64,000 nucleotides of DNA from Arcobacteraceae bacterium (GTDB lineage Bacteria; Campylobacterota; Campylobacteria; Campylobacterales; Arcobacteraceae), in contig OY759974.1 of assembly GCA_963662945.1 (NCBI GenBank), positions 576,001-640,000 of the forward strand. The letters are read 5' to 3'. Numbering within the stretch: position 1 is the first letter of the stretch; each line of letters starts with the position of its first letter. A program made the position numbers. Positions 15,001 to 21,000 of the stretch are shown piece by piece.

Positions 15001-18000
15001 AATATTATTGCTCAATGTAGGTATCAAGATACCAACTATCTGTAATACAAAAGCTAAGATGATGATATCTACACTATTGTATCTATGGGCAAGTCTCATC
15101 CAAATAATTGCAGAGGGAATACCAGCAACTCCAACCACAAGCCAACCTAAACTCCCATAACCATCAAGCCCCTCTAAAGAGTTAATAATATCTGGAAAAA
15201 ATGTAGCTTGAACCACGAAGCTCACCCCTGCTGTAAAATAGGCTAAGATTAGTAATATAACATAAGGTGTAAACATATCTTTTGAAACTTTATGTTTCGT
15301 TGCCTCTTTTTTTAACTCTTTATCAAAAGATAAAATATAAATAGCATAAATAGACGCAAAAAAAGCAAAGATAGTAAGTACCATCCAAGCATCACTCCAA
15401 GTACCACTTTTCAAAGTGTATTGGGATATGAGTTCACTTACAGTTATAGCAAAACCTATCCCACTAAAATGTATCCCCATAGCTTTTGTTTTATCTTCAT
15501 AGTTGAGTTTCACCATAACTATAGCCCCACCAACTATCAAAACCATAGCAGACCCAAATCCAGCAATTACACGAGATACAAACCATAAAATTTCATTTGT
15601 AGTAGTTGCCAATACAAGTGTAGTTAAGACACTTAAAATTATCCCTATCCTAAAGTATTTCACTTTACTATTGATATCTTTTAAAAATATACTAAATACA
15701 GCACCACTTAGATACCCAGCATAGTTAAAAGAAGCAAAAAGCCCAGCATTGGTCACACTTAAAAAATCTTCAAGCATAGAGGGAAGCAGTGTAGTAAATG
15801 CAAATCTTGCAACCCCAACACCTATGATGATACTTATAATCCCTGCAAGGAGTATATTGAAGTTTTTGTTTTTATCTAATAAATTTATGTTCATTTTTTT
15901 CTTTTATATGTAGAAATTATTTGATTTTTTTATTTTAATATTTGAATAATTCTTTCCACTATTTGACTAAGCCCTTTATCTAACTCATTTCTATTTGCAA
16001 GGTCTTTTAAAGACAAAATTGTTTCTTCACTTTGTTTAGTGAGTGGATTTATATTTTTTCCATAAGCAAGATATTGAAATTTACCAAGTCCTAAAATAGC
16101 CTCTTGTTTTTCAGTTGGATTTTTTATTGCACTTCCTAATTTATCTAATCCTACAAAATCACTTACTATAACTGGTAAAATCTTCTTATTAGTATTTTGA
16201 GCTATCATCTCCATCCCTTTTACAACCTCCTCTTCTAAAATATAAGCAGATGTAAAAAAGTTAGCTGAAAGCATATAAATTATTAGGTCACTTTCCTCAA
16301 GCTCTCTTTGAATTTGATCATGCCATTTACCAATTTGTATATCCTCACAAGCCCAATTGTCAGCTAAATCAAAAAACTTTAATACACTTAAGTGTTTTCT
16401 TAATTCGTCTCTAAAATCAATATCTTTTCTTGAATATGATATAAATATCTTTTTCATCTTACTTATCTCCTTGTTATCTGAAATATTTTTAAATGCTCTT
16501 GTTGAAAGAACTATACTATTTTCTTTATTTATTTGTTTCTCTTTTATATTAAAAGCGATAATTTGTTCTTTTGTTTTTTCTTCATCTTCTAGTGTTTTAT
16601 AATGAACAAAGTGTTTGTTATTTAACGATATATATAAATCATCAGGAATAACCTTTTTAGTTTGTAATCTTTTTTCTAAAATTTCATTATTCTCTTTATG
16701 TTTGTTCTGTTCTATCTCATTTTCTTTTCTTGATGGATATAATTTACTTTCATATATTTCAATATCATTATATAACATCAATATCTCTTCAAAAAGGTAT
16801 TTCTGTGTCTCATCTATATCTTTTTTTGAAGTTTTATTATCCCCTATTACATATAATTTTATTTTTAATTCTTCAAAATCAAGTCTTATAAATACTTTGA
16901 TATGTTTATTGTTAAGTGTAAAAAGTAGCACATCTTTCCAATATTTCTTTATATCAGGAGTTCTGCCGTAAATACTAATCAATCGATTCATAAATCCAAA
17001 AGGAATAAAATACTCAAACTTCAAAGTTATACAAGGTGTTTGTATATCAAAGATATATAAAAAATCAGAACTATCTTCATTTATCCTAGGAAGATAACTA
17101 GGAACTATATAATACTTTTCGTTTGATATATCATCTGAAAATATCACTTTATTTTCTATAAGCATTAACACCAAATTTTCATCATTACAAAGTTTTCCAA
17201 ATTTATCTTTTGGTACTCTCCCTTTGTATGTAGATAGACTAGATACATCGAATATCTCATCATGTATTTTTTTTAGTGTTTTAGATGGATTAAGCCACGC
17301 TATTTTTGATAGTTCTTTATTATGAGGATAATAAAGTATCAATCCCTGCCTTGCAAGTTGATTTAAAATAAAATTAATTCTCTCTTTTGCATCTGGAAAC
17401 TTATCTACTATTGCAGATATTTCTATAGCATCGGGGCTATTTTGTTCAAAGATATATTTTTCTACTGCTATATCTATAGGGAGCTTTTTTATCATTTCAC
17501 TATTATCTATCTCATTTTTTAAATGTTTTTTTAATGAATCTAAATCTATATCATTAGTATTTTTATTATTTATATGAAACTGTCTATATATTTTTTTTGA
17601 AAGAATTTTATTATCCAAAAACTCTACACCATCATCATCAATATGTGTTTGAATAAGCCAGTACCTATTTAATAATACTTTTTCTTTATCTTTTTTATCA
17701 CCATTACTATTATAATTTTCATCAAAATTCCAAAGCTGTTTTATCCAATAATCTTTTGTAAAATTCTGAGTCTTTTCATTTCTTTTACTTTCATCATCAG
17801 ATAGAGTATTATTATCAGTTTGTTTTTTCCAAAAAATTAAACTTGTGGCATGATTTGTCATAAATGCTTTATATATCCCATGATAATAATCTTGTCCACC
17901 AAAATCATATATAATAGCTTTTTTATTTTCGTTATTTGGATAGGAAACAATATTAAGTATATGAGTACTTCCTGTTTGTGAATTATCTTCTATAAAGTGA

Positions 18001-21000
18001 TTTAAAAATTCACTCTTACCTGAGCTGTGATTTCCAACTAGCATTATTTTTTTTATACTTTTTATATCTTTTGCACTTTTACTACTAATACCTTGAAAAT
18101 AATCTTTTAGATCTTGAAGATTATTTGAGTCATAAGTTTCATCAAGCTTGAAATCAATTAATTCTTCTAAAAAAGGATTTTTGTAAATCCGCAATTCATC
18201 AAGTTCAGGTAAAGATTTTAACTCTTTTATACTCTTCATATCACTTATCTGATTCCTTGATAAATCTAATTTTTGTAAAGATTTTAACTCTTTTATACTC
18301 TCTATATCACTTATCTGATTATTTGATAAATATAATGTTTGTAAAGATTTTAACTCTTTTATACTCTTTATATCACTTATCTGATTATTTGATAAATATA
18401 ATGTTTGTAAAGATTTTAACTCTTTTATACTCTTTATATCACTTATCTGATTACTCCATAAATATAATGCTTGTAAAGATTTTAACTCTTTTATACTCTC
18501 TATATCACTTATCTGATTATTTGATAAATATAATGTTTGTAAAGATTTTAACTCTTTTATACTCTTTATATCACTTATCTGATTATCTGATAAATCTAAT
18601 TCTTGTAAAGATTTTAACTCTTTTATACTCTCTATATCATTTATCTTATTATATGATAAATCTAATTCTTGTAAAGATTTTAACTCTTTTATACTCTCTA
18701 TATCACTTATCTGATTATCTGATAAATCTAATTCTTGTAAAGATTTTAACTCTTTTATACTCTCTATATCATTTATCTGATTCCTTGATAAATATAATGT
18801 TTGTAAAGATTTTAACTCTTTTATACTCTTTATATCACTTATCTGATTACTCCATAAATATAATGTTTGTAAAGATTTTAACTCTTTTATACTCTTTATA
18901 TCACTTATCTGATTACTCCATAAATATAATGTTTGTAAAGATTTTAACTCTTTTATACTCTTTATATCACTTATCTGATTCCTTGATAAATCTAATTTTT
19001 GTAAAGATTTTAACTCTTTTATACTCTCTATATCACTTATCTGATTATCTGATAAATCTAATTTTTGTAAAGATTTTAACTCTTTTATACTCTCTATATC
19101 ACTTATCTGATTATCTGATAAATCTAATTTTTGTAAAGATTTTAACTCTTTTATACTCTCTATATCACTTATCTGATTATTTGATAAATTTAAACCTACT
19201 ATATTATTATCTTTATCTAATACATAGCCACCTTGATAGATGTTATATACCTCTTCTAAAGTAATACCATATGTTTTTTCCAATTCTAATATTAAATTTG
19301 GTTTTTCATTTTTCTTCATAATATAATATCCTATATTTTATATTGATAATTATTTTATCATATCAATGTCACATCTAGTGTCACAAAAAATTTAAACTTC
19401 TATTTTCTTTTAAAAAGCACCCAACACCATAAGGCTTTTTAGAATAATAATGTTTCCCATGCTCAACAATAAGTGCATGGTATTCTTGATATATTTTTCT
19501 TCTTTCATCTGTATCTTCTATCTCTTTTTCTAAAGCATCTTCAAATATCTTTTTTATATCCCTATACTTAGACTTTTCATCAATCAAACCAAGTTCTAAA
19601 AGCAATCTTTTAGTATAGGCATCTACTTTAAATTGCGCTTGATTATAACCATATAACAAAATAGAATCTGCTGTTTCTTCCCCTATTCCTTTTACTTTTA
19701 AAAGCTCTTCCCTACTTGGAACAGCCCCATTTAATGTATCAAAAAACTGTATAAACTCCAAAATATAATTTGCTTTTTGGTTAAAATACCCTGCTGGTTT
19801 TATAAGTGTTTTAAGTTTCTCTACATCCATAGCTTTTATAGCAACACTAGTGATACAATTATTTTCTTGTAAGTTGTTCATAGCTTTTGTAACAGATATA
19901 AAAGTAGTATTTTGCGTCAAAATTGACCCCAAGGCAACTTCAAATATTTGATCACTATTTTTAGGATAGCTATAATCATTTGGATGATAACCTATATCTA
20001 AAAAAGGCCACCAACCTTGTGCCCCATAATGTTTAAAAAGTGTTAAATAAATTTTGTAAATACTATTTGAAGTTTCCATCAAGTTTCATCTTTTTTAATA
20101 TCTCATAAGTTTTACTTACATCATAAGTTGCACTATGATATGAATATGGATCAAAATCTATACCATAGTAGATACAAGTTTCATCTAGTTTTGGATTTTT
20201 AATATTGCCATTTTTATTCAAAGCTTTTACTATCTGTTTATTTTCTTTCATAGTACAAAAGTGTTTTTCAAACTTTACAAGCTTTTCTATATGTCGTAAC
20301 TCAAAGCTGATATTATGAGCAACCAAAGTCGTACAACCTTGACAAAAGGATACAAAATCTTCATCCTCTTTAAAATATGATGCATATTTTATCTCTTGTT
20401 TATTTCTATGTTCAAGAATAAGTTCTGGGGTTAATCTATGAACTGCGTAAGAGTAAGGGTTTACACTGTGTCTTGAGAGATAATATCTATGAAACTTATC
20501 TTTTACTATTATTTCATTATCTACAATTTCAACTTTTACAGCTGCTGCTTCTATCACATCATACTGGTGTGTTGTATTTGTTTCAAAATCTAATATTATC
20601 ATATATTATCCCACTATTTTATACTGTGAATTGTAGCGAAGTTCCCATTTGTTTTTACTAACCCTGATAATTTTTGTTGCTCCTGTTTAGTAATAATTTC
20701 ACTTTTTAAAAGTTCTCCTAAAATTGCTCCCGTTGTTCGTTCTAATTTTAAAGCTATTTGATCTATAGTATTTCCTTTTTTAAACATACTTTTGAGTTTT
20801 ATTTTATCTTCTAAACTCCATTTAAGTCCACTATTTTTAGCTTTTCCATCTTCTTGATTTTTTTGCTGTCGAAGGAGTTCTTTATCTTCTTGTTGCATTT
20901 TAGATGCACTAACTTTTTTCCCTGATTGTATCGCTTCTATATTTGCTTTTGCATCTTTGATTCTAGTGTCTATAAGTTTATCTACATTTTTAGCCATAAG

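Follow-up and report, generated by a model that had tools for sequence, protein, structure and literature searches.

An LRR-Roc-COR-TIR protein of an Arcobacteraceae bacterium as a candidate immune receptor with a diversifying repeat array

The LRR-Roc-COR-TIR gene and its locus

The window analysed here is a 64,000-nt stretch of contig OY759974.1 from an Arcobacteraceae bacterium. Its reverse strand carries an open frame without stops (15930..19319) encoding a 1129-residue protein, in which Pfam, PADLOC and Foldseek delimit the domains; all parts of the gene described below lie on this strand. The initial annotation had described an LRR-Roc-COR-TIR protein with 15 near-identical leucine-rich repeats (LRRs), and the intact frame and the agreement of Pfam, PADLOC and fold matches bear this out. 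The N-terminal 42 residues (19194..19319), delimited by inspection, form a cap ahead of the repeats with a family-conserved motif (P..ILELEK.YGI.L). Inspection, rather than a predictor, reveals no hydrophobic or signal-peptide-like stretch in this cap, and no secretion-associated domain is matched by Pfam in the 1129 residues; judged from its sequence, the protein looks cytoplasmic. The LRR array (residues 43–372; 18204..19193) consists of 15 tandem units of 66 nt, or 22 residues, is matched by LRR families of Pfam and is closed by a C-terminal cap (LDELRIYKNPF) and linker (residues 373–423; 18051..18203) with 96–100% identity to the ortholog in the closest relative.

The Roc GTPase (residues ~424–620; 17460..18050) is identified by Pfam (2.7e-9, 37.7 bits against a cut-off of 27), by invariant columns, by the structural model and by a sequence match to 3dpu_A (E 1.3e-4). 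Its G1, G3 and G4 motifs are intact, namely the P-loop GNHSSGKS (residues 429–436; 18012–18035), DFGGQ (residues 472–476; 17892–17906) and QTHID (residues 557–561; 17637–17651), with key residues that vary hardly or not at all among 71 sequences. The G4 motif has the form THxD, not NKxD, and the same is true of LRRK2. In the model, a family-specific insertion lies between Roc strands 4 and 5. The COR region (residues ~621–945, boundaries approximate; 16485..17459), placed by Foldseek, has no Pfam COR match in this protein, although homologues are annotated with COR families PF16095 or PF25497. Its assignment in the initial annotation is nonetheless upheld by the fold: the Roc-COR model (pLDDT 84.4) matches the RocCOR structure 3dpu_A with an E-value of 2.8e-15 (TM score on the target 0.63, 494 columns), with further matches to 4wnr, 6hlu, LRRK2/LRRK1 and, at 2.7e-7, the COR-only chain 3dpt_A. 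The protein thus has the marks of a Roco protein, a Roc domain with nucleotide-binding motifs followed directly, in the predicted structure, by COR.

The TIR domain (residues ~955–1129; 15933..16457) is supported by Pfam TIR_2 (3.7e-11, 44 bits against a cut-off of 28), by a PADLOC match to ThsB (5.6e-14, 50 bits), this TIR-only model being the sole PADLOC model that matches the family, and by profile comparison with the PDB (Cat1 5.1e-5, SpbK 0.0087). Strand A reads KIFISYS (residues 957–963). In a Foldseek search, the TIR model (pLDDT 89.6) retrieved RUN1 (3.1e-5), RPS4, L7, SARM1, Cat1, SPARTA and AbTir, the closest being plant NLR TIRs and SARM1. E1031 (codon 16227–16229) is invariant in all 71 aligned proteins and in 11 of 11 in a second alignment; in the profile comparison it aligns, with a one-residue gap, to the WCxxE glutamate of Cat1 and of TLRs (TLR15). 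This glutamate, located on helix C, we take to be the catalytic residue in known TIR enzymes. Sequence and model together therefore predict both features that mark a TIR NADase, the fold and a catalytic-type glutamate.

Comparison with the congener G006 reveals an inserted segment of 3.5 kb (15895..19380, no strand assigned), consisting of this single gene and its own promoter and placed exactly between an HhH-GPD gene and an MFS gene, which lie 5 nt apart at the empty site in G006. Full-length copies are present in two of 25 genomes of the genus; the gene is an accessory one, patchy in distribution and with a precise empty site. A promoter-like element upstream (19349..19402, reverse strand) comprises the direct repeat TGTGACACTAGATGTGACA (19367–19385) followed by TGATAAAAT. 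The same element is found at genes for lipoproteins, a pilin-like protein and a sensor kinase, and so does not point to defence. The neighbours in the window, an MFS transporter and an HhH-GPD glycosylase, are of housekeeping type, with no PADLOC match in either.

Variation in the repeat array and the TIR core

Tandem Repeats Finder reports the array at 18209–19193 with a period of 66, 14.9 copies and 94% matches. The 15 in-register units, a count that is as in the assembly, have 52 invariant and 14 variable nucleotide columns, reproducing the 52 of 66 identical positions given previously. They fall into 12 types in the order ABBCDDEFGHIDJKL, with adjacent identical units at BB and DD. Codons 2, 4, 5, 7, 9, 11, 12, 21 and 22 vary; on recounting, the most variable are 5, 22, 2, 12 and 4, the same five positions that had been singled out as hot. 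Residue 22 is paired with residue 2 of the following unit at 14 of 14 junctions, and because the variable sites are so strongly linked, the number of independent events is small. The ortholog (1061 residues) has 12 units against 15, as first reported, which vary at the five positions named for it (2, 4, 5, 7 and 22) and also at position 21. No nucleotide unit type is common to the two arrays, and silent changes do occur within that of the ortholog, where unit pairs differ synonymously 44 times (TTA/CTA, GAT/GAC).

The initial annotation had stressed 0 synonymous against 388 non-synonymous codon differences in 105 unit pairs. The count is correct but inflated, since unit pairs are not independent; it reduces to about 17 steps distributed over linked ‘cassette’ haplotypes. 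The 12 unit types need a minimum of 17 mutational steps, of which 1.5 are silent on their own (TCA>TCG>TGG forced, CAA>CCT possible), giving P ~0.03. The two reservations attached to the original claim therefore hold, in that the within-gene selection signal is weak (P 0.03–0.04, where ~0.08 had been given) and the array is made up of a small set of linked cassettes that duplication has reshuffled.

The placement of the variation is more informative. Consistent with the earlier statement that differences lie mostly at the x positions of LxxLxLxxN, 11 of the 14 variable columns fall within the 18 x-codon columns (hypergeometric P = 7.4e-6), and all six x codons vary as against three of the 16 others (Fisher P = 0.0011); per site, steps at x codons are 3.6–6 times the silent ones. 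Relative to the ortholog, the array has diverged far more than the adjacent Roc-COR (96–100% identical), its 264 codons showing at least 37 residue-changing and 6 silent differences, compared with 8 and 2, respectively, in the 197 codons of Roc. Across the family, pair-based p-distances (uncorrected, from non-independent pairs) give pN at x codons above pS in seven of seven young arrays (pS <0.35), with ratios of 1.2–2.5, whilst scaffold pN/pS in the same arrays is 0–0.89; in 16 of 27 arrays x-codon pN is not above pS, all 16 being older and saturated in both measures. The same structural positions vary in unrelated arrays of other phyla. Clustering at x positions, divergence of the array relative to Roc-COR and the seven young arrays support a diversifying LRR sensor face at the level of sequence. 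We propose that the array evolves through duplication, loss and homogenisation of units, with differences retained mainly at solvent-exposed x positions.

The differences in the array are limited to a few columns with the remainder of the unit identical, as targeted mutagenesis by a diversity-generating retroelement or template copying would leave them, but this origin can be set aside almost entirely, as no RVT_1 reverse transcriptase was found in the genome (99.99% complete), all 14 matches to the unit in the window fall inside the array, leaving no unit copy or template-like unit elsewhere in that stretch, and the same structural positions vary in unrelated arrays.

The TIR core is the second region that sets the two orthologs apart. 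A recombination patch, replaced between this genome and the ortholog (15995..16288, reverse strand), lies within a wider low-identity zone (~15915–16514) and has 63–77% identity to the ortholog, against 96–100% in Roc-COR, and a dS of 0.84 against 0.01–0.02; between 15995 and 16288 the contigs carry 289 other letters. Identities among family members are incongruent across the patch, and on this sequence evidence the TIR core is exchanged between family members.

The wider family and related systems

At least 164 members of the family occur in one-genome-per-species contigs. The initial annotation had placed unnamed homologues in Campylobacterota and Bacteroidota; both phyla stand, Gammaproteobacteria have to be added, and some relatives do bear names, albeit generic ones (‘TIR domain-containing protein’, ‘leucine-rich repeat domain-containing protein’, ‘internalin A’). 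TIR_2 is C-terminal in 40 of 40 scanned members, and the TIRs of some relatives also match Pfam ThsB_TIR weakly. Some hosts are animal-associated (Porphyromonas, Tannerella, Prevotella, Tenacibaculum) and many are free-living marine or sediment bacteria. A comparison of neighbours, absent from the initial annotation, was made over 16 family loci and revealed no conserved neighbour or partner gene. Known defence genes directly adjoin the family gene at three of 13 scanned loci (type I R-M with an AAA_5 protein; ThsB with AbiE and a type I REase; PDC-M50A with PDC-S01), and the other ten have housekeeping-type neighbours. At one family locus the neighbours include a CHAT-TPR protein and a TIR protein; another locus has a tandem paralogue.

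Avs and bNACHT are bacterial STAND defence proteins built from sensor repeats, an NTPase switch and an effector. The LRR-Roc-COR-TIR protein has this tripartite logic in common with them and with plant TIR-NB-LRR proteins, and with the latter also concave-face LRR variability; in the models, the TIRs of the plant NLRs RUN1, RPS4 and L6/L7 have the nearest fold to its own. It differs in using a Ras-like Roc with COR, and not a STAND ATPase, as the switch, and in the order sensor–switch–effector with TIR at the C-terminus. Membership of the STAND group is rejected: the NTPase is Roc, and NACHT, NB-ARC and like STAND NTPases have no Pfam or PADLOC match in the protein at E up to 1. With ThsB of Thoeris, SpbK and Cat1 it shares a TIR with the conserved glutamate; it has no adjoining ThsA, no CARF or other domain of theirs, and its TIR occupies the last 175 of 1129 residues.

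Among Roco proteins, that of Chlorobium tepidum (PDB 3dpu, 6hlu, 8r4b) provides the best structural and sequence matches and has the same LRR-Roc-COR order, whereas the protein described here has, in addition, the C-terminal TIR and the insertion between Roc strands 4 and 5. Reviews listing TIR fusions had been raised as a possible objection; the available text of a 2019 review describes the prokaryotic Roco proteins identified so far as LRR plus RocCOR only and does not contain the word TIR (PMC6337361). In eukaryotes, Roco and TIR have been combined in print, according to the accessible portions of three reports, in a TPR-ROCO-TIR of Chondrus and in ROC-COR proteins with TIR of Trichoplax and other animals (PMC11378527, PMC4104024, bioRxiv 10.64898/2026.04.20.719644). 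A Runella Roc-COR-CHAT protease is described, in the part of the preprint available, as activating a bacterial gasdermin (bioRxiv 10.1101/2021.06.07.447441), and so likewise couples Roc-COR with a death-effector enzyme in the context of bacterial defence; its effector is a protease acting on the product of a separate gasdermin gene, whereas the family described here has a TIR as putative effector, a long LRR sensor and no partner gene. Brown-algal LRR-ROCO proteins, which share the LRR-ROC-COR layout, are presented in extracts of the source as candidate immune receptors whose LRR units are shuffled and in which four sites on the concave face are under positive selection (PMC11378527); they are eukaryotic and shuffle via exons and splicing, as opposed to tandem 66-nt units in one open frame. 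Fungal NLRs with highly internally conserved (HIC) repeats, as far as the consulted sections go, have repeats that are near-identical within a gene and differ in number, that unequal crossing-over homogenises, and whose hypervariable positions are under selection (PMC13449251). They differ in carrying WD40, ANK or TPR repeats on STAND NTPases, and the strain-level polymorphism documented in those sections is theirs.

A candidate immune receptor with a Roc-COR switch

The original reading, in which an intracellular receptor combines a ligand face that diversifies with a TIR effector, gains support from the N-terminus, motifs, folds, E1031, the empty site and concave-face variability. From the computed architecture, folds, conserved catalytic-type residues, accessory status, mosaic evolution and array variation, we infer a defence role, with a ligand and with GTPase and NADase activities; the protein looks like a candidate kind of bacterial immune receptor. 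It is probably a stand-alone, cytoplasmic, NLR-like anti-phage sensor in which Roc GTPase and COR replace the STAND ATPase as the switch. The concave face of the LRR solenoid would bind an invader (phage) protein, altering the nucleotide state of Roc or COR-mediated self-association; the C-terminal TIR domains would thereby assemble into an active NAD-cleaving complex. This would deplete NAD+ or generate a nucleotide signal, and the infected cell would stop growing.

A switch in cellular signalling that plays no part in conflict, its LRRs binding an endogenous partner, is the foremost alternative, though we regard it as unlikely. The array pattern would then reflect relaxed constraint at exposed positions with recent unit duplication and unequal crossing-over, in keeping with the few linked cassettes, the adjacent identical units and the weak within-gene test; ordinary neighbours here and at most family loci, and a promoter element common to envelope and sensor-kinase genes, would also fit. 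Relaxed constraint alone is insufficient, however, because x-position change exceeds silent change in all seven young arrays, and patchiness with a precise empty site, retention of the catalytic-type glutamate in all members and defence genes at three of 13 loci argue against such a switch.

Somewhat less probable still is that the TIR works in a Thoeris-like manner, producing a nucleotide signal for a distinct effector whose gene lies elsewhere, instead of depleting NAD+ itself. ThsB is the top PADLOC match, several relatives’ TIRs weakly match ThsB_TIR, and the genome encodes a SIR2_2 protein with PADLOC ThsA matches (1.3e-20; contig position 996–4406). That gene, the nearest ThsA-like one, lies ~590 kb away and is adjoined by its own TIR-like gene, TIR_2 is found only once in the genome, and the 16 loci have no conserved partner gene; membership of Thoeris itself is rejected, no ThsA being beside the gene.

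That the protein is an internalin-like or TIR-mimic factor which enters a eukaryotic host or competing bacteria by delivery is very improbable. The ‘internalin A’ labels, NCBIfam internalin matches and animal-associated hosts are what suggest it, but internalin_A scores 220 bits against a cut-off of 1600 and covers the LRRs alone, which with the lack of a signal-like N-terminus on inspection excludes internalin membership; Pfam finds no secretion-associated domain, no immunity-like or secretion gene adjoins, and many hosts are free-living in marine or sediment settings.

Beyond the preferred reading of an NLR-like anti-phage sensor, we advance more tentatively, as a possibility somewhat short of even, that Roco GTPases are a second, ancient NLR-like lineage of immune switches. 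Bacterial LRR-Roc-COR-TIR proteins would recognise phage proteins on a cassette-shuffled LRR surface, use the Roc-COR cycle to trigger a TIR NADase and swap sensor arrays and TIR cores as modules between alleles, and an immune receptor would be the ancestor of the LRR-Roc-COR core seen in LRRK2 and in algal and plant ROCOs.

The family is widespread yet only generically named in databases. Its two orthologs offer natural test material, their switch modules being near-identical while their TIR cores differ and their LRR arrays number 15 and 12 units, and the young arrays in several phyla, changing more at exposed positions than at silent sites, are material on how a repeat sensor tracks its target. 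Should the protein serve in defence, NLR-like immunity in bacteria would extend beyond STAND ATPases, a Ras-like Roc-COR switch doing the same job, and the Roco/LRRK2 field, whose purified bacterial models are without such an enzymatic read-out, would gain a bacterial GTPase cycle with a simple one, the loss of NAD+.

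Domain architecture and predicted fold

The gene occupies window 15930–19319 on the reverse strand as an uninterrupted frame of 1129 codons, whose product joins leucine-rich repeats (LRRs), a Roc GTPase, a COR region and a C-terminal TIR domain. Residues 43–372 form 15 tandem 22-residue LRRs encoded by 66-nt units, a count that is as assembled; Tandem Repeats Finder gives 14.9 copies at 18209–19193 (94% matches). Pfam recognises LRR families, Roc at residues 424–505 (37.7 bits; cut-off 27) and TIR_2 at residues 958–1054 (44 bits; cut-off 28), and the sole match in a PADLOC scan of the protein is to the ThsB TIR model (5.6e-14).

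The initial annotation had cautioned that COR lacked a Pfam match in this protein, as is also the case in our Pfam scan; its presence is settled by the fold. A model of residues 373–1129, built from an alignment of 70 homologues (mean pLDDT 84.4, pTM 0.79), has Roc–COR tandems as its top Foldseek matches in the PDB, including the C. tepidum Roco protein (3dpu_A; E 2.8e-15, target TM 0.63 across 494 columns), Roco2 of M. barkeri (4wnr), 6hlu and numerous entries for LRRK2 and LRRK1; a chain with COR alone, 3dpt_A, is also matched (2.7e-7). By sequence, 3dpu_A is again the best PDB match (E 1.3e-4). The nucleotide-binding residues are intact, with the key positions of the GTPase motifs GNHSSGKS (429–436), DFGGQ (472–476) and QTHID (557–561) invariant or almost so in 71 aligned sequences.

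When modelled alone (pLDDT 89.6), the TIR part is nearest in Foldseek to the TIR domains of the plant NLRs RUN1, RPS4 and L6/L7, followed by SARM1, Cat1, SPARTA TIR-APAZ, AbTir and BtpA. A single-sequence PDB search with the TIR part gave nothing meaningful (best E 0.67, to cytochrome bc1); a profile from 11 family TIRs matched Cat1 (5.1e-5), TLR2 and TLR15 (both about 0.002) and SpbK (0.0087). The TIR residues are likewise intact: in these profile alignments the family-invariant E1031 aligns, with a one-residue gap, with the WCxxE glutamate, the catalytic residue of known TIR NADases.

Variation in the repeat array and exchange of the TIR core

The earlier column counts for the 66-nt unit were reproduced exactly (14 variable, 52 invariant). 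In the register of the array, the x codons of LxxLxLxxNx are positions 21, 22, 2, 4, 5 and 7 (18 columns); 11 of the 14 variable columns fall within them (hypergeometric P = 7.4e-6), and all six x codons vary, against 3/16 of the others (Fisher P = 0.0011), so the placement of variation within units is clearly non-random. The x positions of an LRR face its concave surface.

The initial annotation had also reported 0 synonymous against 388 non-synonymous differences in 105 unit pairs. The count holds, although the pairs are not independent: the array is made up of 12 unit types, arranged ABBCDDEFGHIDJKL, which call for at least 17 mutational steps, 1.5 of them silent in their own right (the change from TCA to TGG is forced through TCG). 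Given that 18% of the single changes possible are silent, zero among the 16 column changes has P = 0.040, rising to P = 0.18 if one silent step is allowed. Residue 22 and residue 2 of the next unit are linked at 14/14 junctions (K or E before D, T or A before Y), and K12 is paired with T22 in 6/7 units; the variable sites are therefore linked, and the array is a small set of β-strand cassettes that have been duplicated and shuffled, bearing out the earlier suspicion of unit shuffling. Along the array (18204–19193), blocks of charged cassettes (K/E22–D2; units 1–4, 8–10 and 15) alternate with aromatic ones (T/A22–Y2, some with W4; units 5–7 and 11–14), and residue 12 (E or K), itself not an x position, co-varies with those that are.

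In a search of 41 related genomes, full-length copies were confined to this genome and G013, an Arcobacteraceae MAG which carries an ortholog of 1061 residues and 12 units at the same site with the same neighbours. Its array varies at positions 2, 4, 5, 7, 21 and 22 and does contain silent variation (44 synonymous vs 216 non-synonymous pair differences); the 15 units of our array and its 12 have no nucleotide unit type in common. Paired in the most favourable order-preserving way, the two arrays differ at 50/792 nucleotides. The sensor array has turned over much faster than the adjoining switch, since over 264 codons the arrays have 37 non-synonymous and 6 synonymous differences, against 8 and 2 in the 197 codons of Roc. 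With both arrays pooled, the per-site number of non-synonymous steps in the x codons is 3.6-fold that of silent steps (binomial P = 0.007), whilst the scaffold codons give a ratio of 0.24. Turnover is fast at the exposed LRR positions. Nucleotide-level constraint on the scaffold codons identical in all 27 units of both species was rejected as a reading, because at the dS of 0.02 in flanking Roc less than one silent difference is expected in seven silent sites.

Across the family, 27 of 42 frames yielded arrays with DNA and at least five strict-motif units; the other 15 had fewer such units or no recognisable P-loop motif. In all seven arrays with silent p-distances among units below 0.35 (G013 and those of Tenacibaculum, Agitococcus, Melioribacteraceae, Emticicia, Porphyromonas and Tannerella), the x-codon non-synonymous distance exceeds the silent one (ratios 1.21–2.48), with scaffold ratios of 0–0.89. 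Overall the x-codon ratio exceeds 1 in 11/27 arrays, the remaining 16 being old arrays with both measures saturated. As these distances are uncorrected and the pairs not independent, the comparison is supportive of the selection signal, not conclusive.

The TIR core has been exchanged as a module. Between the two genomes, identity is 96–100% over 16515–18164, with dS of 0.020 in Roc and 0.013 in the C-terminal half of COR, and falls to 63–77% over the TIR-coding part (15915–16364; dS 0.84, dN 0.23). Within Roc–COR there is also a small divergent patch (17115–17264; 87% identity) with three 1-nt gaps in contigs of the ortholog type. Roc and COR are 95–96% identical to those of G013 and 45–64% to those of four homologous proteins (P0003–P0006); our TIR is 67% identical to that of G013 vs 74–75% to those of P0003, P0005 and P0006, and the G013 TIR is closest to that of P0004 (71%). 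Both alleles are alike at the TIR edges (its first 17 residues and its last ones). Among the public contigs compared, the identical gene recurs in another sample of this organism; those from two other sources are of the G013 type, in which 289 different letters stand between 15995 and 16288, and no third allele was seen. The divergent stretch is a patch of recombination within the effector domain and not the product of accelerated drift.

Insertion site, promoter-like element and family distribution

The gene is an accessory, stand-alone one. In the congener G006, which has an empty site, the HhH-GPD glycosylase and MFS transporter genes lie 5 nt apart; aligned to it, the extra DNA is 15895–19380, reaching from directly behind the stop of the glycosylase gene to a point directly ahead of the start of the transporter gene. 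The insertion is edged downstream by a T-rich tandem repeat of 31 nt (15863–15941; 2.6 copies, 76% matches), which takes in the gene end and the 35 nt that separate it from the MFS start. In G013, about 1.3 kb of extra DNA (L013 12907–14221) separates the HhH-GPD and RNase T-like genes and is absent at window 20067–20079. A 123-residue ankyrin-repeat protein is encoded at 24915–25286 on the reverse strand, amid amino-acid-metabolism genes.

The insert carries a promoter-like element, TTTTTTGTGACACTAGATGTGACA and then TGATAAAAT: a direct repeat, TGTGACAyTAGATGTGACA, followed about 9 nt on by TGnTAnAAT, which occurs in the window at 14158–14176 (+) and 19367–19385 (−). The 19-nt repeat has 10 copies in the genome (loci L021–L030), every one upstream of a gene, and a reversed-pattern control gave none. 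Besides the LRR-Roc-COR-TIR gene, those downstream encode lipoproteins, a DUF3857/transglutaminase-like protein, a pilin-like N_methyl protein, a Cache/PAS sensor kinase, an ORF6N protein and membrane proteins; the LRR-Roc-COR-TIR gene is wired into a native regulon. In G006, too, the element is present, behind the MFS gene.

A word-index search, in which 7998 candidates were scored, yielded 265 proteins at E ≤ 0.001. Scanning a single genome for each species brought up 164 relatives, and 65 of the loci were retained; at genus level full-length copies occur in 2/25 genomes (G000 counted). Hosts include Arcobacteraceae, Sulfurimonas, Sulfuricurvum, many Flavobacteriia and Bacteroidales, Melioribacteraceae, Pseudoalteromonas, Rheinheimera and Agitococcus, amongst others. 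TIR_2 is present in the last 330 residues of all 40 complete frames scanned, from 52 delimited, including TIRs too diverged for tblastn. The homologues have 0 to 18 strict-motif units (n = 119), and mean unit identity is at least 0.70 in 11 of the 75 proteins with at least four. No full-length member was found on plasmids (0/9 matching records cover at least 80% of the query) or in phage records, which gave no match.

Proposed function and alternatives

TIR NADases require self-association. A phage protein bound to the LRR face would switch Roc–COR, which would bring the TIR domains together; the joined TIRs would then deplete NAD+ or make a signal, and the infection would be aborted. This sequence, from trigger through Roc–COR to TIR assembly, is proposed because of the self-association need and because Roc–COR would act as in the C. 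tepidum Roco protein. There, COR mediates dimerisation and the nucleotide state alters assembly (PMC6337361). We regard such a phage-sensing protein, with TIR-driven NAD+ loss or signalling and an abortive outcome, as the probable reading.

A cellular switch without a role in conflict is an unlikely alternative. The shared promoter-like element gives no pointer to defence, and the gene's immediate neighbours, which are kept in relatives, look like housekeeping genes (MFS transporter, HhH-GPD glycosylase, RNase T-like exonuclease, UvrD-like helicase, NUDIX protein and alanine racemase). No constant neighbour gene was found across 16 family loci, and in the 13 scanned with PADLOC (121 ORFs; three loci left out for size) recognised defence genes directly adjoin the family gene in three: type I R-M with an AAA_5 protein, ThsB with AbiEi/ii and a type I REase, and PDC-M50A with PDC-S01. 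A 'mad3' match beside the Chryseobacterium copy (a UvrA-like ABC ATPase by Pfam) and a ZorB match in locus L032 (MotB/OmpA-type) were discounted as defence genes. In Arsukibacterium (L076), a DUF7281 protein precedes the family gene and a 1828-residue DUF7379-CHAT-TPR-S protein and a 624-residue N-terminal-TIR protein follow it (10538–17896); in Rheinheimera (L079 10526–14329), a second LRR-Roc-COR-TIR gene lies in tandem directly after the first. The other loci have ordinary neighbours.

A TIR that generates a signal for a remote effector is less probable again. Elsewhere in this genome, a 379-residue SIR2_2 protein (L096, contig 996–4406; PADLOC ThsA 1.3e-20, LmuA 1e-13) adjoins a 371-residue protein with PADLOC TIR-effector and PycTIR matches, in what looks like a separate defence-like gene pair, and a second SIR2 protein lies at about 1.708 Mb (L097; PADLOC SIR2 5e-89). 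Delivery as a host-interaction factor is very improbable; NCBIfam internalin models match the repeats far under threshold (220 bits vs a cut-off of 1600), and we take the protein to be cytoplasmic since its N-terminus (MKKNEKPNLILELEK...) shows on inspection no hydrophobic signal-like stretch. That targeted mutagenesis writes the array variation is scarcely credible, and its retroelement (DGR) form is excluded, as RVT_1 was not found in the 99.99% complete genome and unit copies outside the array are absent within the window.

In conflict systems of bacteria, Roc(AP-GTPase)–COR modules have been noted as an occasional, rare stand-in for STAND NTPases (PMC7159879), a Roc–COR–CHAT protease serves a bacterial gasdermin (bioRxiv 10.1101/2021.06.07.447441), and eukaryotic combinations of Roco and TIR are already in print (PMC4104024, PMC11378527, bioRxiv 10.64898/2026.04.20.719644). 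Concave-face selection with unit shuffling is likewise described in brown-algal LRR-ROCOs (PMC11378527), and the same evolutionary regime in fungal NLRs with highly internally conserved repeats (PMC13449251). Prokaryotic Roco proteins are described in PMC6337361 as LRR-RocCOR only, whereas the present protein adds a TIR domain; no description of a bacterial LRR-Roc-COR-TIR protein was found in full-text literature, subscription journals and supplements lying outside this scope. We predict the protein to be a bacterial immune receptor, in which known modules are brought together in a combination not yet described.
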